Notes: a model not told the origin generated them from the letters alone. 64,000 nt of DNA from an uncultured Nitrososphaerota archaeon (GCA_963799845.1 CAWCYI010000004.1:800001-864000); one strand, 5' to 3'; counted from the first letter of the stretch, positions 22,585-46,787 are shown. A program made the numbers and translations.

Positions 22585-22603
22585 TCTATCGTAATCCGAT
22601 ATA
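22585..22603. promoter_or_regulatory. TATCG-N5-CGATA palindromic operator candidate upstream of giant adhesin
   Basis: TCTATCG-TAATC-CGATATA; extra CCGATA half-sites near 22557 and 22579. Confidence 0.65.
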
Positions 22604-23194
22604 TTCGCCGAAACAGAGACCAAGAGTCAGAATAGCATACTAAGGATGTAAGATTCTTCATCCTTTTCAAAGTGGAGCTGCAAGAGATTCCGATAGCTCG
22701 CACATATCGGTTTATCCAATATTGGAGAAAAATGAGCATCTTCTTACTGAGACGTTTTTTAGGGGATAACGATTTACTACCATAGTAGTAATACCTTATT
22801 GGAGCTATTACCATTTCTTCGTTTATTTCCTGAGTTTTCATTCCGGCCCTCTCAGAGGCCGTATTCATAATCGATGGCGATGCAATAATCTGGTTAAGAT
22901 AATCGTGGCTGGAAAGGGGGTGGTAGCATGTTTGATTGTGTTCGTACTGCGATCCTGACGTATGGTGCTTGATCCGCCCAAGACAATAAGATGCGTCTTT
23001 GCAAATTTGACGTCAGAAGGTTCGGTCCTCAGACAATGACACAAACTGAATGATATTTAGTCGGTATTCGGTCAAATTCTTACAACAATCGTTGTAATAA
23101 AGAATTAAGGCGTAAGTGCGAGTGAGTGCCCTAATTTCCATCGTATCGTTCTAGCTTAAGCTTTTTCCCGGGGCGGTCGAATCACGCGCGAAGA

Positions 23195-25504
23195 TTAGAG
23201 GTGCACGAAGAATTGACATACGAAAACAGTGATGATGCTGATTGCCACGAGGAACGTGGCGTGCTTGAACCCGTCAGAGACGTTGAGCTCACCCATCTTC
23301 CCGGCGACGAGTCCCATGATCCAAGCCTGGAAGATTGATGCGGTAAGAAGGACTCCCGTGGCAGCGTTCGTGACCGGAGAGACAAACGGAGCGTTGTTTC
23401 CGCCGGTCGCGATGGATAGACCGGAGCCCGCGAGAAGACTCACCATCAGCGCGGTCGTGACAACTACCAGGACTGCTCCGATGTATGGGACTATGATGTA
23501 GGGCCTTACCTGCGACTTTCTTTCACTATCTAGAATCCGGTTCTTTTCAGTGAACTCTGCAAGCGTTTCAAACATCTCGGGCGAGCCGCCCCCGACCTCG
23601 ACAACTTCCAGGAGGAGGAATGCCATCGCCTGCGTCAGCCAGCTGTGGACGGAATTTTTGAAGTTCTCAAGGACTCTCCTGATCGGAATCCCCCAGCTCA
23701 GTTGATGGGAGATCTTCTTGACGTGCACCGACAGACCATCATAATTCCGGTTTGCGAGCTGCTGAATTGTCCTCTCAGGTGCAAGGCCCGTCTTTCTTAC
23801 CTCGGAGATGTCACGCAGAAAATTCGATAGGCGTGACTCGACAGCTCTCTTTCTCCTACTGTGAATTATGCTGATCAGCATGGCGGGAGTGCTTATGATC
23901 ATCAGGGAGATGCCTAGCTGAAGATATTCGGGGATGCCCAGAGGCAGCAAGAAGAACAGAATGCCGACAGGTACGAACCCGAAGAACACGTAGTATGGTT
24001 TCTTGTCCATGAAGGGCTCCTTTATCTGGGCTCCGTCTATCACGGCGATGAAGGCGATTGAGATGGCAGGCACCAGGACAACTGAAAAGAGGAGAATCCA
24101 CGTTGGGCTGATCGACTGGGAGCTCTTTCCGATGAGGTTCTCCGTCAGGTAAATTATGAATAGCGAAACGCCGGTGACAACGGTCGCGATAATGTAACTC
24201 TCGGCAAGGGTTCCTATCATATCGGAGACGGACTTTGACTTGATTTCCCGATAGGCGAAAATCTCCCTGAGCTGAGCTTCGAGGTAACTCTGCACGTTCC
24301 CCCCCACTTTCAACACTGAAAGATATCCGCCGAGGAAATCGGCAAACTTGCGGTTGGGGTTGTTGTGGGCGGCCTTTTCCAGCGCGGAGATGGGGTCTTT
24401 GCCAAAGAGGTCAATATCCATGATGATTCGTCTTGCTTCTCTCGCGCCAGCGGGGAAGAGTTCCCCGACGCTAGCTATCCTCTTTATCGCCGTGAAGGGT
24501 GAGACTCCTCCCGACGCTAGAACCGTGATGTAGCCCACGAGGTAGGGGAGCTCGTTATCCAGAGCAGCGCTACGTGAATTTGCGTTGATTTTTGGCAGGT
24601 TGATCGCGAGGAGCGTAGGGAGGATGAGCAGAAGAGGTAAGAATAACGACTCTAGGAAATAGCCCATTGTATACATGAAGTACATCAGGATCGCAATGAC
24701 TGGGACCATAACGATCGTTACAAAGAAAGAGACTGAAATTATCCCCTCAGGAGTGGCGGAGAGGTTCGACCTTTGGATTTCCTCCCTCATGTTCGGAATC
24801 CTATCGGCGAGAAAGTTGGTGGGAGCTCGCGTGATCCTTATCGCAAATCTGAGGAGGTGCTCGAAGGGAGAAACATGCTGCTCCTTTGGCAGGCCGTAAG
24901 GTGATGGCCGCTGAGGAACTTTTTTCTTCTTTTCCTCTTCAACTTGGGTCTGTCTAAACATTTGCTCCTGTTCCGTCACGAGCTGCTGGCGCTGCGACGA
25001 TGTGGCCATTTCTCTCTGCAAAGGAGGAGGACCAATCGCAGGCTTTGATTTCGACATGATGGTATCCTGCTTCCGACCGTCAACTCGCTCGTCAAAGGAG
25101 GGGGACAGATAATACTTCAGTCCGAAGGCTACGATTGCGAACAGAACGACTGATACCCCGAGCCCGAGGAAGAAGAGTGCGAGGACACCGCCTGAGTCGC
25201 TGAAATTTATTCCGTAGCTCCAGGGAAAATAGGCCGTTACGCTATTAAGCGACTTGAACACTTCGAGGAAGTAAAAGTCGTAGACGAGAAGAGAAACGCC
25301 CGCAACCAGAACTAAAGTTATGACGATAGCTAAAATTAGAGCGAGGCGTCTTGGAAACCATGTTTTACTAAACACATTCCTATTACCGGCTCTACCATCT
25401 TCTTGGCCATCGCTTTCCGATATTGGGTCGTTTTGGCGAATGGAAGACGAGTTTCCGTCGTTGGTCTCCTTCCTTTGAAAAATGCGGTCGATGAGGTTTG
25501 TCAT
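23195..25504 (-). CDS. pilC: type IV pilus membrane platform protein (PilC/TadC/ArlJ-like, two T2SSF domains) with an extra 2-TM N-terminal region
   Basis: LDNELPY...GKDPISAL and VESRLSNFLRDISE...LSWG T2SSF motifs; follows the ATPase; probable ATG 25504. Confidence 0.9.
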   Translation of the reverse strand: MTNLIDRIFQRKETNDGNSSSIRQNDPISESDGQEDGRAGNRNVFSKTWFPRRLALILAIVITLVLVAGVSLLVYDFYFLEVFKSLNSVTAYFPWSYGINFSDSGGVLALFFLGLGVSVVLFAIVAFGLKYYLSPSFDERVDGRKQDTIMSKSKPAIGPPPLQREMATSSQRQQLVTEQEQMFRQTQVEEEKKKKVPQRPSPYGLPKEQHVSPFEHLLRFAIRITRAPTNFLADRIPNMREEIQRSNLSATPEGIISVSFFVTIVMVPVIAILMYFMYTMGYFLESLFLPLLLILPTLLAINLPKINANSRSAALDNELPYLVGYITVLASGGVSPFTAIKRIASVGELFPAGAREARRIIMDIDLFGKDPISALEKAAHNNPNRKFADFLGGYLSVLKVGGNVQSYLEAQLREIFAYREIKSKSVSDMIGTLAESYIIATVVTGVSLFIIYLTENLIGKSSQSISPTWILLFSVVLVPAISIAFIAVIDGAQIKEPFMDKKPYYVFFGFVPVGILFFLLPLGIPEYLQLGISLMIISTPAMLISIIHSRRKRAVESRLSNFLRDISEVRKTGLAPERTIQQLANRNYDGLSVHVKKISHQLSWGIPIRRVLENFKNSVHSWLTQAMAFLLLEVVEVGGGSPEMFETLAEFTEKNRILDSERKSQVRPYIIVPYIGAVLVVVTTALMVSLLAGSGLSIATGGNNAPFVSPVTNAATGVLLTASIFQAWIMGLVAGKMGELNVSDGFKHATFLVAISIITVFVCQFFVHL

Positions 25505-25529
25505 GAGAAAATTAGGGCGTGCCTCCCAT

Positions 25530-27209
25530 CTAGCTAGAAGCGGGGGACCCCGGCGCTGATCCGTTTGCATTGATCTTGTCAAGAACACTCTGCGGGTCGT
25601 TGTGGTACTGCGAAAGGACGGTCGAAATATCGACGAAGTTTCGCATGTTTTTCGACACAAGGTATTCGAGCACCCGGGCCCTGTTCCTGATCTCGTCCAA
25701 GATCTGATCCATTGTCTTTCCTCGATCCTGGGCGAGCTGGCGGAGTTTCACGCTGTTCTGAAGGAAATTTTCAAATTTGTCGGTCTGAGGGTTCCACGTG
25801 AACGTCCTGACAAAGTTGTCCGCGTCAATTATCTCGTCTATCGAAATCAGGCGCCTTGCGATCTTCGGAGCATCCGGATTCGATGAGTTGGAGAGCAAAA
25901 CCCTCCTCACCGTGTAAACGAAGTCTAGAAATGGAATGAATGCCGGCGCAACGTCCATCGGTTTGGAGATAAGTCTCTGGAAAGCGGACTGGGTATCGTC
26001 CCCATGTATCGTCGCGAGACCGCCGTGGCCCGTTGACAGAGCCTGGAATAGTGCGTACGCTTCTTCACCACGAACCTCGCCCACAACCAGAACATCCGGA
26101 CGCATTCTCATGGCCGTCTTTACAAGACCGAATAGAGAAATTTCTCCGAAGCTTGTTTCGGTCAACCCGTAGCTCAACCGGGAGACCATCGGGGTCCAGT
26201 TGGTGTGATGAACGTTGATTTCTTGGACCTCCTCGATTGTCACTAGCTTCGATGTGGGATTGATCGTTGAGAGCAGAGAGTTGAGGAACGTGGTCTTGCC
26301 GGACGCGGTCGCCCCGACGACCAGGGCGGCCGCTCTGTTTTCTATTAGCAGCCACGAATATGCCCCTGCGAGGTAGTCGATCATGCCTAATTTGATCAGG
26401 TCGACGAATGTCATCGGGTCCTCGCGGAACTTTCGGATGGTAAACGATGAGCCAAGAGGCGTGACTTCGGTGCGAAACGTGACGGTTAACCTGTGCTTCC
26501 CGGGGAGAGTTGCGTCCACGATTGGAAACGCGGTACTGATGTGCTTGCCCGAGATGTGGACGAGCCTTACTACGGCATCGTCGAGTCTTTGGTCTCTTCC
26601 GAACACCAGATTTGTCTCGAGGTTTTCGTACTTGCGGTGGTAGATGAAGACGGGCCTCGCGGCCGAGTCAAGGGTAATGTCCTCTATGCTCGGGTCCCTC
26701 ATCATTGGGTCAAGGGCTCCGAAACCGACCATGTCCCTCTCAGCGTAGTAGAGAAGCTTGGCCCATGAGATTGGAGTCTTTGACTTCTTTGTTAGGCGGT
26801 AGCGGTTTGCAGTTCTCAGCGCCTGCTCCGAGAAATATTTTCTCAGGTTATCTCCAGCTTTGGGCGCTTCGATCTCGACCTCGAGTGCAGCAATGATTTT
26901 GGTGTAGAGGTCAGTCTCTTCGGGTGTCAGTGGAGTCTCTTCCACGAAGTACATCGGTAACCTCTTCTGGGGGTTTTCTGCGATCACGGCATAAGCAAAC
27001 GGCGCGAGTAGAGGGTACTTCTCAATCGTCCTAAAATTAGGCGGCATTCTCAAACCGATGAGAGGGCCCTCGATCTCTTCTTCGACAAGTCCTCTTGACC
27101 TCTTCTTGGTCTCTGGCTGTACAGTTAGGGCGCTTTGAGTTGTGGTAGTAGTCACTGAATTTGTTTTCACAGATCTTGAAAATGGATTTTGCATGGTTTC
27201 CTGATTCAC
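25530..27209 (-). CDS. pilB: type IV pilus assembly ATPase (PilB/ArlI/VirB11 family)
   Basis: Walker A GATASGKT, Asp box TIEEVQE, Walker B MRPDVLVVGEVRG, His box GHGGLATIH. Confidence 0.95.
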   Translation of the reverse strand: MNQETMQNPFSRSVKTNSVTTTTTQSALTVQPETKKRSRGLVEEEIEGPLIGLRMPPNFRTIEKYPLLAPFAYAVIAENPQKRLPMYFVEETPLTPEETDLYTKIIAALEVEIEAPKAGDNLRKYFSEQALRTANRYRLTKKSKTPISWAKLLYYAERDMVGFGALDPMMRDPSIEDITLDSAARPVFIYHRKYENLETNLVFGRDQRLDDAVVRLVHISGKHISTAFPIVDATLPGKHRLTVTFRTEVTPLGSSFTIRKFREDPMTFVDLIKLGMIDYLAGAYSWLLIENRAAALVVGATASGKTTFLNSLLSTINPTSKLVTIEEVQEINVHHTNWTPMVSRLSYGLTETSFGEISLFGLVKTAMRMRPDVLVVGEVRGEEAYALFQALSTGHGGLATIHGDDTQSAFQRLISKPMDVAPAFIPFLDFVYTVRRVLLSNSSNPDAPKIARRLISIDEIIDADNFVRTFTWNPQTDKFENFLQNSVKLRQLAQDRGKTMDQILDEIRNRARVLEYLVSKNMRNFVDISTVLSQYHNDPQSVLDKINANGSAPGSPASS

Positions 27210-27224
27210 TTCGCTTTTTTTCGA

Positions 27225-29370
27225 TTAGGTGTAGGTGAATATGGCATAGGCGTAAATTGTCGTCCCGATGTATACGAGCACATAGTACGTTCCCGCCGCT
27301 CCAACCGTCGGGGCGGCAAAGGTTGCACCCGCTGGAATCGCTCCCGTCGCAGTCGAAGTAAAGCCTCCCGTTGCTCCGTTGCACGCTATGGTTGGGGGAG
27401 CTGCCGGTCCGCTCATGCAAACGGTGTACGCCGTACTCAGCTGCAAAGCCCGACCCGGAAAGGGCAACAGATCCACCAATCGTGTGTGAGTACGTTGCCG
27501 GGTTAATGTTGAGCGTCGGGGGAGGAATCGTGAATGTGTCGGCGACTATTGGGGCTTGTCCCGTTGGGTAAATCACGACATAGTATGTCCCATACGTTGT
27601 TGCAAAAATGCTCGGGACGGCAACGCCAGTTCCGGTTGGAATTGTGCCAGTAGTGCTTGACGTGAACGTCTGAGCGGTGGTGGCACAAGTAACTGTAGCT
27701 GATGTGCTACTGAGACAGAAGTTGTAAGCGATTGACTTCCCGTAGCCTATTCCCGACATCGTGATCGTAACCGGCGCTGAAGATTGTGTCGGATTAATCG
27801 TTAACGTTACAGTTACTTGGAAGGGATAGAACGCTGTAACTGTCGTTCCCGTGTACACTATGACATAATCATTCGCATATTGCGTTGCCGAGCCTACAGT
27901 GAAACTGACACCATTTGGTATTGATCCGCCGGTTGTTGTTGTAAAGGCACACGTTGAAGAAGGTGTACAACTTGTGGTGGCACCAGCAACGCATGAAACA
28001 GTCGTCGAACTGCTACTCAGACAGTAGCTGTAACTAGCAGGGCTCGGCTTGTAACCAATGCCTGAAGACAAATCAATAACAGTAAGGGGTGGTCCTGAAG
28101 TGGGGTCTATTGCCAGAGTTGGATTCGATTCGAACAGAGAAGAAATGTAAGGCAGATCTTGCCCGTAATTGGGGGGGCTGCTGCTGCTGCTAACGTAAGT
28201 CAGGCCGCTCACGACCGGGTTAGTGTACTCCCATCCGCTCGTCAATACAAATCCCGCCGTACTGAGGTAAGGAGTGCTGCTCTCTGCTGAAGAGGGAGGC
28301 GTTTGTATCTGGCTACCCAAGGTGGAGCTGAGAGTTTGACAGTTAGAAGTTGGTGGGTTCTGACCTGCCCCGTACGAATCGACGACGCAACTATTGGCAG
28401 CAAAATAGATCGTAGTGGGCACATTGTAGGCTAATGGAATGGGTGTGTATTGATTCAGGATTTGCGTCGTCACGCCGCTTGATGAAGTGCTGACTATGTA
28501 CCAGGGTATGAACGCTGCGGGAGTGCTTCCGCTTTCCGCACCCGAAAGTGACGTTGGCGCTTGGTAGAGTACTGTGAACTGATCGAGAACTATTGACTTC
28601 TGATTAGGATTCAAATCGGTAACTTGGACGGAGAACGCTATGGGCCCTGCCTGGCAGAGACCTTCGGGATCGTCTGAGTCATAGTCTCCACAGCCCTGAT
28701 CATCACCAGAAGGAGGTTTCACTACCACTTTGGTAATAGGGATAATTGAAGCACTGGCTCCGAGCGATGGAAAACAGTATCCAGAATTCCCAGAACCTGA
28801 TAAACAACCCGAGGTTACCACACTATAGTAGTCGTAGCTGCTGAAATTCATCAAGAGGTCTCCAACCGTGCCAGCCACAACGGCCTGAGGTACCACAGTT
28901 GTCGTCGGATAGATAATCTCGTCAACAGTTCCAAGACTGGATATCGCTTTTATCCAAACCGTATAGATCGAGCTACTGCTGGCGTAGGTGAAACATGCTC
29001 CACCACATGGTACGTTTGCAGTTCCACTAGGGTTTATACCGACAGCTGGTGAGATCGCATCAGTCTGCAAAACAGTGTTGGTTGACTCGTTTCCGACGAC
29101 AATTTCCACTATGCTAATCGAGGTAGGGCCTGTATCTGTAACGTTCGCCGTCAATTTGGTTGAGCTTAGGTTTCCGGCAACTGTGAAAGACTCCTCGGCT
29201 GCCTGCAGATTCAATAGTGCTCTTTGGTTTGTGGCCTGCTCGGTAAACGTGAAGTAAGTTGCGATTGTAGAAAATATAATCGCAAAAATGATGACGCCAC
29301 CAATGATAGTTGATACCGCTTTCTTTTTTCTGGAAGTTCTGCCTAAATTCTTCATTAATTTTTTTAACAA
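27225..29370 (-). CDS. large pilin-like adhesin (class III signal, 3 C-terminal Cys-paired repeats); frame break near 27440
   Basis: RKKKA/VSTIIGGVIIFAIIF; the third repeat continues in ORF 27225..27479, so the tail of the 777-aa ORF overlapping pilB is spurious. Confidence 0.8.
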
Positions 29371-29379
29371 GTTTTATTT

Positions 29380-29916
29380 TCAACCAGTTACTTGATAGTC
29401 ATAGTTTGTACCATACTGCCCGGTCACTACGACTGAGACAATTGTCCCCTTTGCCACTCCACTGCTGCAGCTACCTGAGGAGGTATAAGTAGCTCCACTG
29501 AGGCTGCCAGAGACACCAGTCAGAGATATAGATTGCAATGAGTTAAGCGTCCCAGCGCTAAGCGTCCATTGAGGGGCGGAGCCGGTCACTGAAATCGTGC
29601 ATGTCCCATACGTGATTAGGATCGCTGCAGCTATCGTGTTTTTCTGTCCGCTGTTGAACACGTACAACGTTATCGCACTCCACGGCGCGGTTCCACCCGA
29701 AAAAGTAGAGGCAACGATCTCAAATTTTTCGGCAGTCACGTTGAAGTAACTATTTTCCGAACTTAGGGCGTTCGAGTTAGCCCAGACCCAAGCGACCGAC
29801 CCGATAACAACCGTTATGGCGACAAGAACAATCGTCGCTATGACTTCGCTGATTGCAGATCTATTTCTGCGCCTGCGGACTCTTAGTTTCTTTGGCTGCG
29901 TCATTGTGGGTATCAT
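29380..29916 (-). CDS. minor archaeal type IV pilin
   Basis: RRNRSA/ISEVIATIVLVAITVVIG class III signal. Confidence 0.9.
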   Translation of the reverse strand: MIPTMTQPKKLRVRRRRNRSAISEVIATIVLVAITVVIGSVAWVWANSNALSSENSYFNVTAEKFEIVASTFSGGTAPWSAITLYVFNSGQKNTIAAAILITYGTCTISVTGSAPQWTLSAGTLNSLQSISLTGVSGSLSGATYTSSGSCSSGVAKGTIVSVVVTGQYGTNYDYQVTG

Positions 29917-29949
29917 TTATCCTGGCAAACTTTCGTTTCGCTTGAGAGA

Positions 29950-29971
29950 GGAGAAAAGAAAAAAGGGGGGA
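29950..29971 (-). terminator. U-rich terminator after major pilin
   Basis: pyrimidine/T tract on the minus strand ~25 bp after the pilin stop. Confidence 0.55.
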
Positions 29972-29992
29972 GTCGCTTAATTTTTGAAAAAT

Positions 29993-30391
29993 CTAAACGG
30001 CGACTGCTACACCGGTGATGGCTTGTCCGTTCGACAGTGTGATGTCGAAGTTGTAGTTATTTCCTGAAGTTACGGCTGTACCTACAGTGCACGTTCCTGA
30101 ATATACACCCGTAAATGCTGCGTAGGTGCCAGTACATGCTCCGTTTACAGTGACAAGACTTACAGTCACTTGAGAGCTGGCCGGATTATCCAAGGAAAAG
30201 GCGAATGTAGTAGGTGCTGTCAGGGTTGCTGACTTCAATGATACCGTGTTGGCATTGGCGCTGAACAGACCGAACGCGAACACACCAACCACGAGTGCCA
30301 GTACTAGGGCAACCGCGATGAGTATGATCGTAGCGATGACCGGACTGATTCCTTTCTTCTTTCGTTGTCTCAGACGTGAGATGGAAACCAT
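29993..30391 (-). CDS. pilA: major archaeal type IV pilin
   Basis: KKKG/ISPVIATIILIAVALVLALVVG; first gene of the operon; TTTAAG TATA-like box ~27 bp upstream. Confidence 0.92.
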   Translation of the reverse strand: MVSISRLRQRKKKGISPVIATIILIAVALVLALVVGVFAFGLFSANANTVSLKSATLTAPTTFAFSLDNPASSQVTVSLVTVNGACTGTYAAFTGVYSGTCTVGTAVTSGNNYNFDITLSNGQAITGVAVAV

Positions 30392-30437: not shown

Positions 30438-30456
30438 TCTATCGGCATACGATATA
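30438..30456. promoter_or_regulatory. TATCG-N5-CGATA operator candidate between pilin and divergent surface gene
   Basis: ATATCTATCG-GCATA-CGATATATT, with flanks identical to the 22585 site. Confidence 0.65.
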
Positions 30457-30657: not shown

Positions 30658-33218
30658 ATGAAAACTAAGATCGAATCTTCACAGAGGATTAAGGTCTCGG
30701 CTCGCAGAAGGAATGCAGCTGTTTTCGTTATCTTTATTTTTGCCTTGTCGACGTTGATTGCCCTAATTGGATTCCCACTCTTCAGCTAGTAGTGCGTCAG
30801 CACCTTCTGCCCCCTTCAACGAGGGCATCAGCCTACTTGCGAGACCTCCAATCCTCCCTGCGGATGGCGGCGTATATTCGTCTCTAGTTTTGCAGTTTGA
30901 AAATACTACATCTTCTGTACCTATTATTCCGAGTGTGAACATAACCGTGCAGCTGACATCTTCTAGTCCACAGACGGGGACAGTCCCTCCGAGCGTTCTG
31001 TTCCCTGCTGGACAGACATTCATCACCGTTCCATTCAAGACGACAACGTCACCAGGAAGTACCACGGTAAGCGCATTTGCCAGCGGATACGAACCCGCAA
31101 ACTTGATTGTTAATACTCAGGAGCTTGGCGGAATCCCGGTCGCGCTTAATGTTTCTGTTACCCCCAATCAGATTCCTCCAGACAAAAGTTTCCAAGCGAG
31201 TGTAGTTGTTCAAGCCAGAGATTCGTTTGGAAATCCTGTGAAATTGGCTTCCAACCTGGTCGTGACACTGTCATCCTCAAATTCCCAGATAGGAAGTGTT
31301 CCCAGCTCGCTGACAATTCCGGCGGGTCAGAGCTTTGCCACGACCACATTTTCACCGAGTTTTCTCGCCGGGAATTCGGTGGTGACAGCCTCAGCATCCG
31401 GCTATCTTTCGGGTTCGGCATCAGTGTCTACCGTAGGTCCGGTACCGCGCCGATTGGTGATATCTATAGCACCCGCCCTCTTGTCCGATGCCAAGGGCAC
31501 CAATGCAACAATGTCTATTCAACTTCAGGACAATAACAGCCAGACGCCGGCTCTCGCCGCTTCTCCCGTCAACGTCGTTGTCACATCGAGCAACGATAGT
31601 GTGGTCCAACCGGAAAACACAGTTGTTACCATCCCCGCTGGTTCAACGTATGCCACGACAACTTTGGTCTCAGAGGGCGATGCCGGTTTTGCAAACGTAA
31701 CCGCGTCCGCCCAGGGATTCGTGAAGGGGTCAGCGCTTGTGACCACGAGCGCGCCCGGTAAAAAACCCAACAGCCTAGTCTATCTATTTTGTTCCCAATA
31801 CTCTGCTCCCAAATGACCGGAGTTACAACGGTACTGTCGTTGTCGAACAGCAGGAAGCGTTTTCAAACGGAAGCGTCATCCCCGCGGTGTCTACTAACTC
31901 TACTTCAATTTACGCAAGGTCATCGGACAACGCAACGATGCAGGTCAGCGGCGCGACGATGAATATCACTGCAGGATCCACCTACGTATCGATGGATGTG
32001 AATACGACCTTCCTGCCGGGTCTTGTATCCATTACGGCGCAGAGTCCAGGTTTCTTGGCGGATACTGCCAACCTTCTTTCCTTCGGCGCGATACCTGATA
32101 CCATCAGCTTGCAATTCGCGCCCGCCACTTTGATTTCAGATGGAAGCAGGTACAACTCTGTCGTCGTCGGCTTGATTAATTCTGGAACCGGAGGTCCCGC
32201 GATTGCTCCGCTGCCCACGATAGTCGATCTCTCGAGCAATTCCAGTTCGGCAGGCGTGATTCAGAGTTCCGTTACAATCCCCGCAGGTGCGACCTATGCC
32301 AGGGCAGAATTTACTACATCCGGTCTCCCGGGCAACGTACAGGTTATCGCGACCGCTTCGAATTACAATTCTTCAACGCAAACTCTAACCCTGGTGACCC
32401 CAGGCGCCACGAACTTAGGGCTGTACGCGGCTCCGTACTATGTGCTCGCCGACGGAGGATCCTACCAGAATGTAGCGGTCCAACTACAGGATTCAAATCG
32501 GAATCCCGTTAAGACTAGCATACCGGTGTCCATTCAATTGGATTGTCAATCAGCAGCCTACTGCAGCGTTCCGCCCAGCGTCACGATCATGCCGGGCGAG
32601 ACCTTTGCTGTTTTCCCGGTCAACACGACTACCACGCCGGCCGCCTTCAATGTGTCAGCCTTTGCAGTGGGCCTCAGACCAGGATCAGTGCGGATGAACA
32701 GTACGTTAGAAGCCCTGCAGGCTAACATCACACTTGACACATCCAAACTGCTACCAAACGGGCAGACCCAAGCGACAATCACGGTAGAATCAAATGGACT
32801 TTTGATAGCTAACGCGAACGTAAAGTGGGTCCAATCAAGCGACACGCAATTTGTTTCTGTGCAAAACCAGACAGACTCGAATGGAGTTGCGACTGCAATA
32901 GTCGAAGGCGGGCTTTTGGCAGGGACTTTCCAAGTTCAAGCGGTTGTGCAAAAAGCCGGATATACGGACTACCTTGCCTCAACCGGCCTGACCATAGCAC
33001 CGCCGGTGCCGGTTCAGAGCAACGGAATCTACGGGAAATACCTCTTTCTTCCAAAATGGGCTTGGATCCTGATTGTGGTCGCTGCCGCAGCCGCGGCGGG
33101 TGTGGTCGTTGTTTGGAGACGAAGAAGACCGGCAACAATCTTCGAAGAGGAAAGGCTGGAAATGCCGCCGGTCCCGATTGCTGAGGGTTCGGGAGACACA
33201 AACCCCTATTCACTATAA
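30658..33218 (+). CDS. membrane-anchored multi-Ig-like surface protein; frame breaks near 30785 and 31790
   Basis: signal peptide, repeated P..L.ADG...V.VQLQD...SVTIPAG.T.A domains, C-terminal TM followed by RRRR; ORFs 30598..30789, 30767..31816 and 31887..33218. Confidence 0.8.
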
Positions 33219-34431: not shown

Positions 34432-34450
34432 TATATCGTAGTCCGATACA
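34432..34450. promoter_or_regulatory. TATCG-N5-CGATA operator candidate immediately upstream of PadR gene
   Basis: TATATCG-TAGTC-CGATACA, ~33 bp before ATG 34483. Confidence 0.65.
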
Positions 34451-34482
34451 CTAAAATCCCGCTGAATGAACTCCCTTGGCCT

Positions 34483-35879: not shown

Positions 35880-35881
35880 AA

Positions 35882-38297: not shown

Positions 38298-38516
38298 GGT
38301 CGGAAAATATTGGATCTCGTTGGATATTGAGTTGAACCCGAACGTATACGTGAATCATAGAACTGGATTGCCAGTAGGTTAGTGCACTGGTAAACTTCCT
38401 AAGAGAAATCAGGACAAATCTCGGGAATCTCCAAACAGGCTGTTTTGCATGGATTAGCCGGAAAATTCGAGCATACTCTTTTTAACATGGGGGGCTCTTC
38501 CGCGAGTCGTACCAAA

Positions 38517-39134
38517 ATGTCACAAGTCCAGAAATGGCACATGAAGGGAGATTTCTTTGACAGCTGTTCCTGCGAAGTCTCGTGTCCCTGCAACTGGTCG
38601 TCTCCTCCGACCGGGAATCACTGCATTGGGGCCGTGGCGATTCACGTCCGGGACGGAAAGTATGGGGACACAAAGCTCGATGATTTGAGCATCGTCCTAG
38701 TCGTTGACCTTGGAGAAGGCGTCATCTGGAAGGGTGGTTGGAGAGCGGGAGTGATATTTGATGAAAAAGCCAATCCGAGCCAGCGTGATGCGCTAGCAAC
38801 AATAATGACCGGGAAAGCTGGCGGAGCTCCAGCGATGATCGCCTCTCTGATAAAGGAAATGGTGGGCGTGGAATTTGCCCCGATCAGTTTCCATTACAGC
38901 AAGGACGGCTGGGGTGTGTCGGTGGGCGGGGGCAAGGTCGAAGTTCAGACCGAAGCTACGAAGGATTCTAATGGAAACATCACGCAGATTCATAACGCGC
39001 CGGTTGTGGAGACGGGAACCGGGCCGATAACCTCTGGAAAGGCAAAGAGTTCTACGGTTAGGGCGTTCGGATGGACGTGGGACCTGACCGGCAAGAGCAG
39101 CAAGCACGAACCCGTTGACTGGAAGGGCCCGTGA
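38517..39134 (+). CDS. DUF1326 family protein
   Basis: W.MKGDFFDSCSCEVSCPC...PT..HC signature. Confidence 0.88.
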   Translation: MSQVQKWHMKGDFFDSCSCEVSCPCNWSSPPTGNHCIGAVAIHVRDGKYGDTKLDDLSIVLVVDLGEGVIWKGGWRAGVIFDEKANPSQRDALATIMTGKAGGAPAMIASLIKEMVGVEFAPISFHYSKDGWGVSVGGGKVEVQTEATKDSNGNITQIHNAPVVETGTGPITSGKAKSSTVRAFGWTWDLTGKSSKHEPVDWKGP

Positions 39135-39172
39135 CTGACTAGTCAAAGTAATTAGATCGGCCGAGTGATCTT

Positions 39173-39982
39173 ATGACTGAAACCCGCAAACCGTTTTTTG
39201 TCCCCGACAGGCTTGCGATTTCTGTAGCAGCAGCTCTATTGACCCTAGCCGCGGTCTCCTGGTTGGCATCCTACTATCTCATGCCTCTCATGGCCGGTGC
39301 CGGCATGATGTCGATGGGAGTTGCGGGCATCGTTTCGTCCCTCTCTTTTTCTTCGGTAGGCATCTTTGAAATCGTCTGGGTCATAGGGATGGCGGCGATG
39401 ATGTTTCCCGCGATGATTCCGATAGTTTTGTTTTACAACAAGGTTGCAACTAAGCAGGAGTCAAATCCGTTCCTGGCGAGGGTCGTGGGGACGCCCCTCT
39501 TCCTGAGCGGGTACCTGATAATGTACGCAGTTTTGGGTATCGGAGCTTACCTTGCTGTTTACGAAGGCATCAACCTTTCAATGGGTTTCTCCGATTTGGC
39601 GACACTCGCGATTCTCGCTTCCAGTGCCATCTTGATCATCACTGGGGTCTACCAGTTTACTCCGCTTAAATCGCGATGCCTGTCAAATTGTGCTTCGCCG
39701 ATCGGTTTCTTTGCGGTCCATCTCCAGAAGGGAATGGTCGGGAGCGTTCGAATGGGCCTGAGGCACGGAATCTACTGCGTCGGATGCTGCTGGGCATTCA
39801 TGCTGGTTATGCTCGCCGTTGGGGCGATGAGCATTCCAGTAATGGCGGTACTGGCTGGAGTAATAGCCGTCGAAAAAGTCGTCGTGCGGGGAGCTGCGTG
39901 GTTCAACGCGCTCATTGCGGGGGCATTCATTGCACTGGGCGTAGCTGTGCTGATATTTCCGAGCATTCTGGCTCATATCTGA
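39173..39982 (+). CDS. DUF2182 predicted metal-binding membrane protein
   Basis: MAAMMFP, YQFTPLKSRCLSNC and YCVGCCWAFM motifs. Confidence 0.9.
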   Translation: MTETRKPFFVPDRLAISVAAALLTLAAVSWLASYYLMPLMAGAGMMSMGVAGIVSSLSFSSVGIFEIVWVIGMAAMMFPAMIPIVLFYNKVATKQESNPFLARVVGTPLFLSGYLIMYAVLGIGAYLAVYEGINLSMGFSDLATLAILASSAILIITGVYQFTPLKSRCLSNCASPIGFFAVHLQKGMVGSVRMGLRHGIYCVGCCWAFMLVMLAVGAMSIPVMAVLAGVIAVEKVVVRGAAWFNALIAGAFIALGVAVLIFPSILAHI

Positions 39983-40092
39983 GAATTGCTTATGCATCTT
40001 CAGATCTGTGGAGGGCGAGATAACGTGTCACGATTTTGTACCCAAGAAGCCAATTTCATGTTTGAGAATCGTCTTCAGAATTTAATATATGG

Positions 40093-41112
40093 TTGACAAA
40101 AGCGCTTGAACCCGTGGTAAATACGAGCACGGGCTTTCCTCCTAACAGAACCCGCAAACGGTACGCTGTTTCCAACTCCGTCATGCTTGCCCTCTTCGCG
40201 ATAATTGTCATCATTGTTGCAGGCGTAGCTGTCCTGGGTTATAACTTTGGAAGCACTCAGGCAAACCAGTCACTGGTAAATTCTCTTCAGAGTCAGGTCA
40301 GCACCATTAGCAACCAGCTAAAGTCGCAGGGGAGTAACCTATCTTTGGTCCAGGCAAAACTATCGTCTTTACCAGAGGAGAACCAGAAGCCCCAAGTCAG
40401 GAATATCAAGGTCGACTGGAGCAATACTGAAAATTCTGGTCAGGATAGATTCTACGTTCCTACCATCACGGTAAACCAGGGAGACACGATTGTGATCACC
40501 TTCGTCAGCAACGACACGGACGCGCATACCTTTACTCTGGAATCTCCTTATGACTTCCAGATCAACGCCACGGTTCCCGGGACTCTTGATTACCTGAAGA
40601 ACGAGACGCCTTTCACTACGAACGCCACAAACAACTCGCCCGGCGTGAAGGTGTTCGGAACTCCGGGTAACGTCACCGGGACTGGATCATTTGTTGCAAA
40701 ATACGCGGGAATTTTCGAATACTTTTGCATTTACCATGTAGCGCTAGGGATGTTCGGCTATCTAACGGTGCTGCCGAACGAGGCCTACTCAAATTCATAT
40801 CTGAGCAACTCGACCGCTATATCAGGAACAGTAACTCCGGTCAGCATAGCTTCCGGCGCTGCTGCCAATCCCAATTCCAGCGGATTCACCCCGAGTGTGA
40901 TCACGGTTGTTATAGGAGTCAACAACACCATACAGTGGACTAACAACGATTCCGTGCCACACACGGTAACTGCGGACGATGGTTCGTTCAGCTCCGGGAA
41001 CTTGAATCCAAGTGACGAATTCACGTGGACTTTCACAACTGCCGGCAATTACGCGTATCACTGCAGCTACCACCCCTGGATGAAAGCGACCATCATAGTA
41101 AAGTCGGGATAA
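40093..41112 (+). CDS. membrane-tethered two-domain cupredoxin (blue copper) protein
   Basis: two type-1 Cu ligand sets: AHTF...CIYHVALGM and PHTV...CSYHPWM; N-terminal TM plus coiled linker. Confidence 0.88.
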   Translation: MTKALEPVVNTSTGFPPNRTRKRYAVSNSVMLALFAIIVIIVAGVAVLGYNFGSTQANQSLVNSLQSQVSTISNQLKSQGSNLSLVQAKLSSLPEENQKPQVRNIKVDWSNTENSGQDRFYVPTITVNQGDTIVITFVSNDTDAHTFTLESPYDFQINATVPGTLDYLKNETPFTTNATNNSPGVKVFGTPGNVTGTGSFVAKYAGIFEYFCIYHVALGMFGYLTVLPNEAYSNSYLSNSTAISGTVTPVSIASGAAANPNSSGFTPSVITVVIGVNNTIQWTNNDSVPHTVTADDGSFSSGNLNPSDEFTWTFTTAGNYAYHCSYHPWMKATIIVKSG

Positions 41113-41306: not shown

Positions 41307-41636
41307 TTGGAAATGTATGATTTACTTCAGTGCGTGGATCGGGGACTGGATGCATTCGGCACAAACATGAAACAGGCAGTGTACTGGACGCTAATGTCCA
41401 AGGAAGCTATATCGTCTGACAGAATACTTGCAAATCCGGAAGCATTCGTTAGCGCGCTAAAGGAAATATTTGGTAACGGGTACCATCTTGCAGAGAGATC
41501 TATCGTCAGAGAAATGAAGAAAACTTTTGAACTCAACAAACCCGCGAGCGCTTACACCATCTTGGGGGCATTTGAGATCGTCAGTAAGGACATTACCAAT
41601 GTTGCAGATCCTGTAATACTAACGCAGACACAATAA
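41307..41636 (+). CDS. stand-alone DUF3227/NitrOD5-like protein
   Basis: VDRGLDAFG...PEAFVSALKEIFG...ERSI pattern. Confidence 0.65.
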   Translation: MEMYDLLQCVDRGLDAFGTNMKQAVYWTLMSKEAISSDRILANPEAFVSALKEIFGNGYHLAERSIVREMKKTFELNKPASAYTILGAFEIVSKDITNVADPVILTQTQ

Positions 41637-42261
41637 CCGCCATCAAAGTTACTAAGAACAGATTTAGAGCAGCCTGTGTGCTCATTTCTTCGTCCAGAGT
41701 TCTGCGTTGAGCTCCTTGATAGAATTTCTTTCTATTGTTCTCTAATCGATAAATATGAACCGTTCAGTCAACTAGTGGAGCGTCGGAGAAATTCGAGTAA
41801 TTATTCACATCGAAATTCTCGCAATATCCCAACGCTTTGTTCTTGTTCAGATGTGGGAGTCTCGCGGAAACTATCCTGCCACACGTGAGACACTGATATT
41901 TCAAAACCTGTTGCGCTCCTAAATAATTGGCGGGAAGTCCTAAAAAGAGTTCTCAGTATCGGTCCATCCAGAAATCATCGGACACCCGATATTACTCCGA
42001 AAATGGCGACTCGAAAGTGCTGAGTTTCGATATGATGTACAAACCCGACATGCAAAATCTGAATAATTTTTCACAGATTGAGATCATACATTGAGGAAAA
42101 AGGCCTAGTGGTCTGAAACTCAAGTTGGTAATGGTTTTGCAATCGAAATCATTCCCCAACCATCAGAATCCAACTCTCAAACCCGTTCGTGAATAAAATT
42201 CTTGAGTCTGGGTAGAGGACTCTTCGGGTTCTTCTAAAGGCATAGATTCCGCCAACACAAC

Positions 42262-42976
42262 ATGAAAACAAAACTAGCTCTGATCTCAACGTTAGCCGTA
42301 CTAGTAATTCTGTCTTCAGTAAGCGTCGCATCCGCGGATAAATCGATCTCAATGGTCGGGTCGCAGTGGGCCGTCTTCGAACAGACCACACTGCCAAATG
42401 GCAATTTACTATTCTCTCCAGCGGCCCATGCCGACACTATCCCTTCGGGGGGAGTCCAGTTTTCAATGCCAGACGCTACCGCGTCCAGTCCTGCATACGT
42501 GAATTATCTGCTCGATACTTTCAACGTCGCCCTAACTGAGACAAATACAATAAGCGCTACGATAAATGTTATGACAAGTTCTCCGACAACAGACTTTTGT
42601 AGGCAATCCTGATGGGATCATTCCAGGAACATCCGTAAGGCTCTTTATCCAAGCCAATCTTCCCAACGATCACAGCGCTTCTATCTGCGGAATCGACAAG
42701 AACGTCAATAACTACTGGTGGGCAGATGATGCTTCCTATACTTTCGCCACAGGTCTAAGTGGTACTATCACACTAACTGCATCTCTTGGTGGAGCTTGGA
42801 GCAACATATGCGGGCAAGTTAGCAGTTCTAATCAGGCTGCGTTCGATTCAGCTATAGCGAGCATACACTTAATCGGATTGTCGTTCGGTAGCGGATACTT
42901 CTACTCCAACGGCCTGGGCGTAGACGGAACAACTGGAAGCGCAACCTTCCAGCTTGTCAGCTACTCAATCACCTAG
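42262..42976 (+). CDS. secreted hypothetical beta-protein; frame break in TTTT near 42597
   Basis: signal peptide; removing one T continues VGNPDG...NYWW...IGLSFGSGYFYSNG to TAG 42976. Confidence 0.75.
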
Positions 42977-42987
42977 CGCAAGAAATT

Positions 42988-43017: not shown

Positions 43018-43020
43018 AAG

Positions 43021-43410: not shown

Positions 43411-43430
43411 TCCTATGAGAGACCATATAC

Positions 43431-43462
43431 AAAAAAGAAAGGAATGCGGGTGGTTAACCCGC
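43431..43462 (-). terminator. hairpin plus U-tract terminator
   Basis: GCGGGT-N5-ACCCGC followed by a T tract on the minus strand, just after stop 43470. Confidence 0.7.
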
Positions 43463-43469
43463 TTATTTT

Positions 43470-45651
43470 TTAGGGCACGACGAAGTTAATTGAGGTCCCC
43501 CAGTTAGCCATCTGGCCTCTCGTTCCACCGCAGGTTGGGTCAATAGCGAACGCGGCGGGCGAACAGTTCGGGTACTGGATATAGTTGGTGGCGAAGTAGA
43601 TCTTGTCTCCCGAGGCAATTGCCCAGCTGTAATCTCCCCAGCGGGGGCGATATGAAGCTGAAGCGCCAGGGCACATCGCGGTTGGACTCGCCGTATTAAG
43701 GCACTGGTACTCGGTAAACCCATCCTGAGGTGACTGACCCAGGTCTGCGATGTTTATCACTCTTCCAGTAAGGCCACCCGAGGTACTTGTTAGGCGACCG
43801 TACACCGTACTAGGATAGTAGTTGTGGCCCGATAGCGTGAAGGTAATTATGGCTCCATTATTCCCGCCGTCCTGTGATGGAGACCCGGTCGCGGCCATCG
43901 CTGGGAATTCCAAATCCTCGTGCATAGCTGTTACGTACGCCTGGCTCGTTAGGCTGAAGACTCCACTTGAGTCGAAAGAGCTTGTGCCTATGACCCAGTA
44001 AGCGGCTCCCATGTGGTTTTCCGGCGATCCAGAAATGAACGTTTGCTCCACCTGAGTGCTTATTGCGCTCCAAATCTGACCCTGTGCGTAAGAGGCTTGA
44101 GTAGCCCCGTCACCGTTAGTCGCGATTCCTCCTTCAGGGCAAGTACTTGAGCAACCCTGGTCGTTCCCGCCGGGTGCGTCCTTACTGAAACCCACCGGAT
44201 AATTACTTGTGCCTAGAGGTATTGGCCCGCTTTTCTGCGTAGCAAGAAATCCCAGATTGTAGTACGATAGCACGCCGGAGAATAGCTGACCGCCGAAACC
44301 TATGCCCGAGCAAGTTATGCAGAAAAGGCTATTCAGGTTGATAAGGCCTGTCCAGTCGAATACTGCGATCCGGTTGTCCCCAGCGCCGACAAAGTCGAGC
44401 GATGCGAACATGAATCCGGAGCCTCCGTGGCTTTTGTCGTACTGTGATGGGTCGGATGACTGTGCTGGAATTACCTGGTACCAGCAATCAACTCCGCCAC
44501 TAGCAGCACAGCTTCCGTCTGGTGTTGGGAAGTAACCCATGTTCTCGATAGCGACGTTGAAGGAGGGACTAGCAACCGGTAGGCCCAGTTCCAACGCTGA
44601 CTTTGTAATCGCGATTTCTTGCGCCCCGTTGAAAAAGCCGCCGCCCAAACCGCCACCGCGCAAGGGGAACTCGTCATAGAACAGTAAGAAGGCGTCTCTG
44701 GTGGTTGCGATCTTTGCAAAGTCATTGAGGAGGTAGGGATAACCCGGCTCTAACGGATTGTAATTGGGGTTGAAGAAGTAGACATAGTAAGAGCCCAGCG
44801 GGTTTGCTGTTACGCTCACAGCAATCCCCTCATAGCAGGCTAAAGCTCCAGCTGAAAAGCAACCGTTTGGTGCAAAGGGACCCATCGAGGCCTCAGAACT
44901 TGCTGAAACGATCTCCGTAATGAACCAGTGTCCACCGTTGTTGTAATCGAAGAGGCATGAGGGGTCGCCGCCGCTGCTCCATGGTCCTCCCATTTTGGCA
45001 GGGATGCTTGTGAGACCCATCAGCGCGTCAAGGGAAATAGCGGGTCTTGCGTTGTTCAAGGCGGGGTTGAAAACCATAATCTCCCCTTGGTTGTTAGTCT
45101 CCATAACGAACCCGTTACCAGCACACAGGCCTTGGTCTGCGGGTTCAACGTTCCCGACAACCGGGAAAAGATTGAGGTCGTTTAGTGCGTTCAAACCTTT
45201 CACGCCCTTCGCACCGCCGGAAGATCCACTAACGGTGTCGCAACCCGCACCCGGGCAACTGACTACTGGAGGGGGATCCGCGGCAGGACTAGCCTGCAAA
45301 TTGGAATTTGCAGATGTGACTTGTTTAGGGCTGTAGTAAGGAACCACATGATTTGGTCCGGAGACGGTTAACTGGTTTGAAATAACCGGGCTCGCCGCGG
45401 GTGCGGCAGTCGCCCTGAAGGGGCCGAAGGGCCCAGTTAGAACAGTACCTGGCCGGACCAAAAGTTAGTCCGGTATTTCCTGGTAAAGTGGTTGGAGTAA
45501 TAATGCTAGGAGCGGCTGATGGGGAGCTCGTCAAGATCGAATAGGCTGTGACAGGAAGGGCCCCGCTAACCAGCATAAGCGCCAGCAACGCGATTGACAC
45601 GATTAAGATTCTTTTCGGATATTTTACGAGAAAAGTCCCAATTCGATTCAT
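43470..45651 (-). CDS. secreted Cys-containing protein, probable beta-propeller; frame break near 45460
   Basis: signal peptide in ORF 45325..45651; EPADQGLCAGNG, GDPSCLFD and RWGDYS motifs. Confidence 0.75.
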
Positions 45652-45706
45652 GAGTCGAGAGGGCGAGAGCGCTGAGTAAATAAGTCTTCAGAAAAACCGG
45701 GAACTA

Positions 45707-46744
45707 TGTTTTTTCCAGAAATCATTTCGCATCTGTCAGGAGACCTCCATAGACAAAGGATATTCAAGAGCATCTAACTGCGGCATCTTCTCGTAGTAAG
45801 CCTGGGTTGGCGTCTTGAGGTCAAGGGCTCCATGAGGCCTCACTTCATTGTACCACTTCATGAACTCATCTATCGAGGAGAACCACTTGATCTTACTCTC
45901 GAATATGTCGAAGAACTTCTCGATCTTGCCGTTCGTCTGGGGGTGGTTGACTCTTCCGAGGATGAATCTTATCTTGTGCTTCAAGAGACACCTCTCGAAT
46001 TCTGTCATCCCCTTCTCCCTCCTCTCAGATTCCATCGTGTAAAATGTGGTTCCGTGGTCGGATAGGATCGATGCAGGTTTGCCGTGTTCCTTCATGGCGC
46101 TCTCAAGACAGGAAACAGAGTACTCCGAGGTCAGCGTTTCATGGACCCCAAATCCGGTAATGAGACGAGAAGCATCATCCTCATAGCAGGTGAGCCACTT
46201 GCCCTTCCACCTCGGATCCTTTACCTCGTGCCAGTCCGTATGCCATAATGAATTCGAGTGTTCCCTCTCGTATCTGACCCACTTCCTCCTTATCCACTTC
46301 TTCCTAGAGTTTGACGCAAAGGAGTTCATCAGGAGCACCCTGTGTATCCTGTTGTGGTTGATGTGAATCTTGCTATCGCACTCGATCTTTCGTTCAAGGT
46401 AGAGGGCGTTTGCCCTATATCTCTGATAAGCATCAATGACGAGTGAAGTTTCCTCGTCGGTAATTGGAATGCTTTTCCTTCCTGGTTTCTTGAGGAGGAG
46501 AGGCACACCCCCACCTTTCCTATGCTGGGCAAGTATCTGCTCAACCCTCCTCTTTGACACCCCGAGCTGGAGAGCAATGTTTGCGCAGGTCTCGCCCCTT
46601 TCTCTCAGCTCTGAAGAGGTAACTGATCTTGTCGCTATCAAGCTTCGCGGGCACATGTTTCTCGTAACGCTTTGTTACGCTCTTCCAAAACTCTCCCAGT
46701 CTACTCCTGTTTACCAGCTTGCGAAATAATTGTTGGAAAAGAGA
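45707..46744 (-). mobile_element. IS481-family insertion sequence with 15-bp target site duplication
   Basis: imperfect 24-bp terminal IRs (TGTTTTTTCCAGAAATCATTTCGC vs TCTCTTTTCCAACAATTATTTCGC); AAAAACCGGGAACTA at 45692-45706 and 46745-46759. Confidence 0.9.
45736..46656 (-). CDS. tnp: IS481-family DDE transposase
   Basis: HTH, WHTDW, DDASR, ILSDHG and PQTNGKIEKF motifs; probable frame break in the first ~15 codons. Confidence 0.9.
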   Translation of the reverse strand: MCPRSLIATRSVTSSELRERGETCANIALQLGVSKRRVEQILAQHRKGGGVPLLLKKPGRKSIPITDEETSLVIDAYQRYRANALYLERKIECDSKIHINHNRIHRVLLMNSFASNSRKKWIRRKWVRYEREHSNSLWHTDWHEVKDPRWKGKWLTCYEDDASRLITGFGVHETLTSEYSVSCLESAMKEHGKPASILSDHGTTFYTMESERREKGMTEFERCLLKHKIRFILGRVNHPQTNGKIEKFFDIFESKIKWFSSIDEFMKWYNEVRPHGALDLKTPTQAYYEKMPQLDALEYPLSMEVS

Positions 46745-46768
46745 AAAAACCGGGAACTAGAATGAAAT

Positions 46769-46787
46769 TATATCGGTGTCCGATATA
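46769..46787. promoter_or_regulatory. perfect palindrome TATATCGG-TGT-CCGATATA (TATCG-N5-CGATA site)
   Basis: 8-bp perfect arms; ~65 bp upstream of gene 45651 once the IS is removed. Confidence 0.7.

Follow-up and report, generated by a model that had tools for sequence, protein, structure and literature searches.

Palindromic sites and the genes beside them

The window, meaning the whole stretch of DNA analysed, comprises 64,000 nucleotides of an uncultured Nitrososphaerota archaeon (GCA_963799845.1, CAWCYI010000004.1:800001-864000; C4:800001-864000 of a 4.6-Mb, nine-contig assembly referred to below as G000), and the element considered here is a palindrome, TATCG-N5-CGATA, found in it upstream of genes for pili, surface proteins and a PadR-family regulator. 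Exact copies (TATCGNNNNNCGATA) occur four times, at 22587-22601, 30440-30454, 34434-34448 and 46771-46785, the same places at which a first-pass annotation had reported them. In 100 dinucleotide-preserving shuffles of the window the mean was 0.06 copies and the maximum one, none of the 100 reaching four, and with one mismatch allowed there are eight matches against 1.47 expected. All four exact copies are intergenic according to a rough open reading frame (ORF) caller, and the first two have a longer form in common, ATATCTATCG-N5-CGATATATT, which the annotation had likewise recognised.

The first copy, TATCGtaatcCGATA at 22587-22601 (score 23.4 with the weight matrix described in the next section), lies 184 nt 5' of the TTG start of a 1245-aa surface-protein ORF (18665-22402) and is accompanied by a weaker half-like site at 22548-22562 (score 14.6). 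This ORF is the first part of a giant PKD- and Ig-rich surface protein (7508-22402, minus strand), represented by three ORFs of 1245, 459 and 3169 aa that overlap or abut in different frames and that may be one gene split by assembly indels.

The second copy, TATCGgcataCGATA at 30440-30454 (score 21.0), spans positions -63 to -49 of a pilin gene (29993-30391, minus strand), that is, 48 nt 5' of its ATG, and is followed about 10 nt downstream by a stretch, GGAAGG+TTTAAG, resembling a TFB-recognition element (BRE) and TATA box. The pilin, which matches Pilin_N and has the N-terminus of a class III signal peptide, belongs to an archaeal type IV pilus operon (23195-30391, minus strand) assigned from its N-termini and its Pfam matches (Pilin_N 3e-5, T2SSE 3.6e-35, T2SSF 6.7e-24). 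The operon also encodes, on the same strand, two proteins of 178 and 777 aa whose N-termini resemble those of pilins (the larger at 27037-29370), a PilB-type ATPase (25530-27209; T2SSE) and a PilC-type membrane protein (23195-25660; T2SSF). Divergent from the pilin are two genes with Big_1/invasin-like Ig domains according to Pfam (30767-33218, plus strand), the nearer of which starts 312 nt from the site.

The third copy, TATCGtagtcCGATA at 34434-34448 (score 20.3), lies 34 nt 5' of the ATG of a gene for a 116-aa PadR-family regulator (34483-34833, plus strand), spanning -49 to -35. The positions and the Pfam matches thus agree with the original description of sites ahead of the giant surface protein, the pilin and its operon, and the PadR gene.

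The fourth copy, TATCGgtgtcCGATA at 46771-46785 (score 22.4), lies 312 nt upstream of a small ORF at 47098 and, on its other side, is separated from the promoter of a secreted-protein gene by an insertion sequence (IS) with an rve integrase (45707-46745, minus strand, 1039 bp). This active-looking IS has 11 copies in the genome at at least 99% identity and is flanked in the window by duplicated AAAACCGGGAACTA; once it is removed, the site comes to stand 66 nt from the ATG at 45651, which upholds the earlier assignment of the site to that gene. The contigs of four DNA runs yielded no IS-free joint, as they end at the IS ends. The secreted-protein gene itself (43470-45651, minus strand, with a signal-peptide N-terminus) appears as two ORFs, 45325-45651 and 43470-45461, that are fused by dropping one base at 45448, as in the short-read contigs of two runs, X1 and X2. 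Contigs from public short-read runs differ from the window by single-base indels at 45448, 46606 and 47372. The assembly thus contains indel errors, and further pairs of overlapping ORFs (7508-22402 and 50680-52321) may be artefacts as well.

Two further sites are of lesser standing. A candidate fifth site, TGTCGgaatcTGCTA at 52451-52465, is found only by the matrix (score 20.3), has three mismatches to the strict pattern and lies about 130 nt 5' of a secreted NHL-repeat ORF (51470-52321), which is one of two overlapping ORFs of a beta-propeller gene with a signal-like N-terminus (50680-52321, minus strand). A near copy that had been proposed at 41976-41991, about 270 nt 5' of a secreted ORF (42262-42612), is indeed present, but as CATCG-N6-CGATA, with one mismatch plus an N6 spacer and a matrix score below 9.5, so that its standing as a site is doubtful; a 65%-identical homolog of gene 42262 in a relative (G012) has an exact site upstream. 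By its predicted gene content, this region of the window is a surface-structure island.

Distribution of the palindrome in the genome

Genes in G000 were called with a rough codon-usage ORF picker, which assigned 80% of the genome to coding sequence and failed to call the PadR gene of the window. The genome contains 16 exact copies of the palindrome, 14 of which fall in the roughly 20% that is intergenic (binomial 1e-8); coding DNA, incompletely scanned in the first-pass annotation, therefore does not carry the motif equally often. For four of the 16 copies to fall inside 24.2 kb, the scan probability is approximately 1e-3.

The spacing of the half-sites is fixed, with N5 alone enriched among spacers from N0 to N11. 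Exact intergenic copies number between zero and four at every other spacing and 14 at N5, and when at most one mismatch is allowed the intergenic matches number 77 at N5, compared with 21-49 for the other spacings. The slightly relaxed pattern TAKCG-N5-CGMTA behaves in the same manner, with 26 intergenic and seven coding matches at N5 and between one and seven intergenic matches elsewhere. A palindromic weight matrix, built on the intergenic copies and refined iteratively, yields tATATCG(g/a)nWn(t/c)CGATATa as its consensus and returns 49 intergenic and nine coding sites at scores of at least 16, and 18 intergenic and one coding at scores of at least 20. The sites are not a mobile repeat, because the flanks of the 49 matrix sites share nothing beyond the motif, barring one tandem pair and one duplicated region.

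Tandem copies of the operator-like sequence, placed head to tail with zero gap over 30 bp, occur at C6:886300-886329 and in a relative (G006:C81:21756-21785), which suggests cooperative binding at some promoters. An identical segment with two small ORFs and a matrix site between them is duplicated at C4:1177776-1178760 and C6:952974-953958. Separately, another palindrome, TTATCA-N4-TGATAATCG, is present in 10 intergenic and three coding copies (for example at C6:477080, C6:1172709 and C7:49694); here N4 alone is enriched, and the sequence probably belongs to another regulator.

Genes downstream of the sites

The genes beside strong sites in G000 are, according to Pfam, mostly of the kind that acts outside the cell or at its surface: five BNR propellers, three A4 peptidases, two PF04185 phosphoesterases, a type I phosphodiesterase divergent from a TauE exporter, a GxGYxYP glycosidase, an amino-acid permease, two beta-helix proteins, two DUF4382 proteins, and TIG and PKD proteins. 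The targets in relatives add thermopsin, M48 peptidases, NHL/lactonase propellers, NosD-like beta-helices, FG-GAP proteins, GH99 and transporters. When an N-terminal hydrophobic stretch is taken as a proxy for a signal peptide and both sides of divergent promoters are counted, 28 of the 56 candidate targets in G000 have a signal-like N-terminus, compared with 19% of the 4340 proteins of the genome (P = 2e-7), and the same is true of 47 of 73 downstream ORFs of at least 80 aa in the relatives. At most sites, a gene lies on just one of the two sides.

In a related group, the non-ammonia-oxidising Thaumarchaeota of acid soils, signal-peptide-bearing S53 and thermopsin peptidases active at low pH have been described, and a lifestyle of protein degradation is believed to depend on extracellular acid peptidases, according to the sections consulted of PMC10640624. 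By sequence family, the predicted target set of the regulon matches these peptidases.

A family of small proteins of 89-115 aa, with about 17 paralogs in all (window 41307-41636; C6:808936, C6:1412763 and around 14 more), has no Pfam match; its nearest Atlas clusters are Nitrososphaerota hypotheticals, and there is a weak lead towards NitrOD5. This NitrOD5-like family was considered and set aside, as the operator stands upstream of just two of the 17 paralogs (and also of their orthologs in G002 and G003).

Conservation in relatives

The occurrence of the motif was assessed in 41 genomes by counting the exact pattern and, as a control, its reversed pattern. All 12 other genomes of the family have the exact motif, with 97 hits against 16 for the control (93 against 15 when the unpublished genome G001, with four against one, is left out; G001 otherwise contributes only one PadR locus with a site and one HTH_45 locus without), and two of the 12 stay near background, G008 from genus g3 and G005, each with two hits against one. 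Among 28 genomes from 19 other families of the order there is no enrichment, with 27 hits against 45 in the control. In 11 of the relatives, 69 of 92 exact sites are intergenic.

Additionally, the sites recur before the same genes. When the ORFs of at least 80 aa downstream of sites in the relatives were clustered with the targets in G000, site-bearing clusters emerged for BNR propellers (12 members in five genomes), S53/pro-kumamolisin-like proteins (six members in five genomes) and A4 peptidases (five members in three genomes). The divergent phosphodiesterase/TauE pair has a site in four genomes, and a gene for a small protein, divergent from that of a large Flg_new_2/PKD protein, has one in three. 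In the alignment of the phosphodiesterase/TauE intergenic region from the four genomes, the site ranks with the most strongly conserved blocks and lies about 21 nt upstream of a conserved T-rich, TATA-like block, GGAAGG+TTTTTTTATAT. Conservation in relatives, which the first-pass annotation had anticipated, is thus seen both in the 12 family genomes and in orthologous promoters.

These comparisons bear on two explanations that do without a dispersed regulon. According to the first, the palindromes are a chance or compositional artefact, or remnants of mobile repeats; the AT-rich flanks are all that speaks for it, while the shuffles, the spacing controls, the reversed-pattern controls in 41 genomes and the unshared flanks refute it, and its probability is negligible. 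The second is the narrower proposal of the first-pass annotation, a local pilus/adhesin regulon under the sole control of the neighbouring PadR. Four exact sites do lie within 24 kb around the only site-bearing regulator gene of the window, a clustering improbable by chance, but 12 of the 16 exact copies, like the majority of the matrix sites, are elsewhere, before hydrolases and propellers, and the motif is enriched in relatives in which the pilus operon and, within the genus, the PadR type were not found. As far as its local character goes this version is contradicted, and as a whole it is very improbable: the sites extend genome-wide over some 50-80 promoters and across the family, and hydrolases and propellers dominate among the genes they precede.

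As regards the pilus operon, its 777-aa protein had no ortholog in the 12 family genomes searched, and a search of relatives with the window PilB matched a different, conserved pilus locus (C4:861694-871382) and not the window operon. The promoters of the window operon are not comparable across the family, because no ortholog of the operon was found in the family genomes searched.

Taken as a sequence-based reading, the palindrome is very probably the operator of a transcription factor that would govern a conserved secretome regulon, one that appears specific to a single family of soil Nitrososphaerales, apparently non-ammonia-oxidising as far as the context tells; DNA of the stretch occurs in the soil metagenome runs of one study. 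A search for the AmoA family had no match in G000, though its control had none in any genome either. The window holds the densest cluster of this family-wide secretome regulon.

Candidate regulators

The DNA-binding candidates beside strong sites in G000 are two short PadR proteins, an HxlR, an ArsR-type protein and a 157-aa putative winged helix-turn-helix (wHTH) protein at C1:123035. PadR paralogs are favoured as binders because their own promoters repeatedly carry N5 palindromes, which is the usual mark of autoregulation. Besides the PadR gene of the window, the gene for the second short PadR, a protein of 121 aa (C6:822528-822893), has TAGCGggatcCGATA 78 nt upstream, so that two of the 12 PadR-family genes in G000 have an upstream site scoring at least 20, compared with 0.7% in a control set of 599 genes (P = 3e-3). 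Homologs of the C6:822528 protein in G003:C72 (63% identical) and G009:C240 have sites scoring 17.7 and 16.5, and a homolog of the window PadR (G009:C293) has one scoring 17.3, 23 nt from its start.

All genomes of the family, and some beyond it, have a different type of arrangement, namely a two-gene module in which an HTH_45 gene precedes a PadR gene (in G000, C6:1676861-1677685 and C4:884855-885766). Of the 12 HTH_45 loci that rank best in genera g1 and g2, 10 have the PadR gene directly downstream and seven have an N5 palindrome scoring at least 12 within 170 nt upstream, compared with none of eight loci in other genera and families. The sites of the modules fit a putative family of paralogous regulators that would read N5-spaced TAWCR palindromes. 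The palindrome of the second module in G000, TAACAaactcTGTTA, is unique in the genome, and TAACA-N5-TGTTA was rejected as the motif of a second regulon on account of this single occurrence.

The window PadR protein scores just above the Pfam cut-off (PF03551, 29.8 bits against 27), and its sequence matches in the PDB are SMU.1704 and Rv3488. In its AlphaFold model (pLDDT, the predicted local distance difference test, 75.9), helices at residues 24-35, 40-51 and 58-70 are followed by strands at 74-81 and 84-91 and a helix at 93-115, and the top Foldseek matches are Rv3488, LmrR and other PadR proteins, with template modelling (TM) scores up to 0.72. The predicted structure is a clear subfamily-2 fold, with a single wHTH domain and a long C-terminal helix. 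Of the signature DNA-contact residues of the family, given as Tyr20, Tyr42 and Lys67 in the portion consulted of PMC5728393, a Tyr20-like tyrosine (in TLYS) and a basic wing residue are present in the alignments. The closest relatives of the protein are in genus g2, at 36-37% identity and sharing TLYS...GTIHPHL; three of the four score best in BLAST against another PadR of G000, so their orthology is doubtful.

Several observations weigh against an operator read by PadR proteins, and some against the site set on which that reading is built. Ten of the 12 PadR genes of G000 have no site, nor do 29 of the family's 30 top-scoring PadR loci, the exception scoring 15.2 in the unpublished G001, and the G004:C13 homolog (49%) of the second PadR has none either. 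Regulators other than PadR (the HxlR, the ArsR-type and the 157-aa putative wHTH proteins) adjoin sites. HTH_45–PadR pairs also occur in genus g3 and in another family, in both cases without motif enrichment, and at the modules the palindromes deviate from TATCG, as variants whose halves are CATCA, TAACA or TGTTA. In the window PadR, a histidine (in ILHPHL) occupies the Tyr42 position, as it does in the closest homologs from g2 (in GTIHPHL). Its type was not found in six genomes of the same genus (58-87% complete; best matches 30-39% identical, E 1e-5 to 1e-6), which nevertheless show the motif, and TATCG-N5-CGATA differs from the known PadR operators. The distances between site and start codon range from 24 to about 250 nt in no fixed register. 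Finally, the matrix drifted, its site set being larger after each round of refinement, which makes matrix-only sites less certain than exact ones, and the gene calls, start codons and signal-peptide proxy are all crude.

The principal alternative leaves the regulon and its operator in place and assigns the binding to a protein outside the PadR family, such as the HTH_45 partner, the wHTH protein at C1:123035 or an unrecognised one, with the PadR genes as ordinary members. HTH_45 genes do head the pairs whose promoters carry palindromes, and one in G006 lies near tandem exact sites; C1:123035 has two sites upstream, within a cluster of six; and the missing Tyr42 and the failure to find the window PadR type in motif-keeping genomes of its genus point the same way. 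Against this, the two short PadR genes that carry the strongest sites are not preceded by an HTH_45 gene, and only one of the eight HTH_45 genes in G000 has a site scoring at least 12. The C1:123035 paralogs were considered and set aside, as they have no sites. TrmB, another candidate tried, was rejected: none of the 11 TrmB genes in G000 has an upstream site, and neither does any of seven orthologs of the one TrmB gene from G011 that has a site nearby. As a whole, this alternative seems unlikely, albeit as the strongest of the rivals.

The small ORF beyond the fourth site (47098-47367, plus strand, 89 aa), which had been annotated as a wHTH protein, proved to have no Pfam or PDB match, and it was discarded as a regulator, having no family and no solved relative, and a sole paralog without a site.

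On the sequence evidence, a PadR-family protein is slightly favoured as the binder, and the operator-and-regulon reading, taken together with such a protein as the leading candidate, may be considered fairly probable. That the window's own PadR binds the palindrome is rather doubtful; it may be one of several paralogous binders or a mere target, because its type was not found in genomes of the same genus that keep the motif.

Proposed mode of action

In the mechanism proposed here, TATCG-N5-CGATA, in its extended form tATATCG-N5-CGATATa, would be the operator of a dimeric wHTH transcription factor. The centres of its 5-bp half-sites lie 10 bp, or one helical turn, apart, a geometry that a wHTH dimer could read; the recognition helices of PadR, about 34 Å apart, fit half-sites about 10 bp apart (as described in the part consulted of PMC5050560), and most wHTH dimers fit likewise. 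The binder would be one or more of the paralogous PadR proteins, that is, 34483, C6:822528 and the PadR of the HTH_45–PadR pairs.

The effect of binding may depend on where the site lies with respect to the core promoter. TATA-like hexamers in G000 peak at -45 to -30 before start codons, from few counts, and the site of the window PadR gene overlaps this putative TATA/BRE zone, so that binding there should repress. At the pilin gene, gene 45651 and the phosphodiesterase, the site is 10-35 nt upstream of a BRE/TATA-like stretch (at gene 45651, about 34 nt upstream of TTATTTA), from where binding could activate. The first-pass annotation had described the site as abutting the TATA zone at PadR and as lying upstream of it at the pilin and gene 45651, and its suggestion that PadR represses itself and activates surface genes fits the positions relative to these TATA-like sequences. 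A constant distance from the site to the start codon or to the TATA-like stretch was also considered and rejected, as none is seen.

The position of the sites bears as well on the possibility that they are core-promoter variants, in which two outward-facing TATA-like halves would serve an alternative pair made up of a TBP (TATA-binding protein) and a TFB (transcription factor B) and no operator would be involved. The flanks do resemble TATA boxes (TATAT...ATATA), several sites are placed 24-48 nt from a start codon, the distance expected of a TATA box, and one stands between divergent genes. The most informative positions are, however, the C and G of each half, together with the strict N5 spacing and two-fold symmetry, and many sites have a separate BRE/TATA-like stretch downstream and a gene on a single side, all of which renders a core-promoter variant very improbable. 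Within the operator model, the most far-reaching version, in which the paralogous PadR proteins are a master switch for the 'outside' of the cell (acid exoproteases, phosphoesterases, propeller and Ig/PKD proteins, and pili) through one 15-bp operator whose position decides between activation and repression, is speculative and on the unlikely side.

Other genes of the window

Several additional loci are worth recording. The conserved pilus locus, which runs from 61694-64000 in the window to C4:871382, shows 70-74% PilB identity to other metagenome-assembled genomes of the Nitrososphaerales and has no strong site. Nor is there a strong site at a pilin-like cluster (52652-57800) that encodes three large proteins with pilin-like N-termini; the N-terminus of the 777-aa pilus-operon protein resembles that of an ORF at 56508-57137. 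Five repeats, 43-48% identical, are common to the 777-aa protein and the 1245-aa surface-protein ORF. Elsewhere in the window, a PIN-domain gene follows a small ORF (35583-36349), likely as a toxin-antitoxin pair; a UPF0175/ribbon-helix-helix gene lies at 49699-50091; and a copper-related cluster (38445-41112) encodes a DUF1326 protein, a PpoB2 copper chaperone and a cupredoxin/multicopper-oxidase-like protein.

Relation to known regulatory systems

Vibrio cholerae AphA is a PadR-family activator in the cascade that leads to the toxin-coregulated pilus, where it acts at one promoter together with AphB, and it is likened to the present case, by description alone, as a PadR-family protein upstream of pilus and surface functions. 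EarA proteins, in turn, are small wHTH activators of archaellum operons that act upstream of the BRE/TATA at sites consisting of short direct repeats. A small wHTH protein and a surface-filament operon are common to both cases; unlike EarA, the sites described here are N5 palindromes, and no EarA ortholog was tied to them, the one Pfam match to EarA being weak (E 0.003) and falling on the HTH_45 gene C6:1677344. The difference from AphA lies in the protein, AphA being bacterial and having two domains; it is named as a member of subfamily 1 in the consulted part of PMC5728393.

[quoted passage not shown] Both motifs have an N5 core spacer, start with TATC and end with GATA, and occur in tens of promoters on one functional theme, and here too sites are found both over and upstream of TATA-like stretches. 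They differ in that TATC and GATA are 7 bp apart here instead of 9 and the overall length is 15 instead of 17 bp, with TATCG as the half-site; moreover, the targets are secreted proteins and pili rather than sugar metabolism, there is no link to the TrmB family, and the host belongs to the Nitrososphaerales and not to the Thermococcales. The resemblance with differences that the first-pass annotation had noted is therefore consistent with the consensus in that source.

As for the PadR family, its characterised members (B. subtilis PadR, LmrR, Rv3488 and C. difficile cdPadR1) bind, as wHTH dimers, to palindromes in the promoters of their own genes, and the cdPadR1 motif occurs at 100-200 genomic places (PMC5050560 and PMC5728393, in the parts consulted). 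The window gene is like them in its subfamily-2 fold and size. The PadR operators given in the consulted sections of PMC5050560 are ATGT-N8/10-ACAT and TACT-N11-12-AGTA; the palindrome in the promoter of the window PadR is TATCG-N5-CGATA and not ATGT-N8-ACAT, which was itself not scanned for. The known roles of the family are detoxification, efflux and virulence, and the window protein has its histidine at the Tyr42 position. Our literature search found no characterised archaeal PadR-family transcription regulator, nor any relevant Thaumarchaeota motif or regulon, half-site string or archaeal PadR operator. A palindromic wHTH operator with a dispersed regulon is a known kind of system; the interest of this one lies in its probable definition of a conserved exoproteome-plus-pilus regulon in an uncultivated lineage.

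Significance

To our knowledge, almost nothing is known on how the non-ammonia-oxidising Thaumarchaeota of acid soils, which are abundant and uncultivated, regulate their genes. The conserved putative operator ties their peptidases to phosphoesterases, propellers and pili in a testable regulon, offers a prediction of which hypothetical proteins belong to the exoproteome, and comes with a short list of regulators that can be tested in vitro without culture. The finding points to archaeal PadR proteins as regulators and could serve as a second archaeal case, besides TrmBL1 and the TGM, in which to test activation and repression dependent on the position of the site. If the master-switch version were true, it would be the first case described in archaea of a PadR protein whose operator is defined and of a regulon that spans the secretome.

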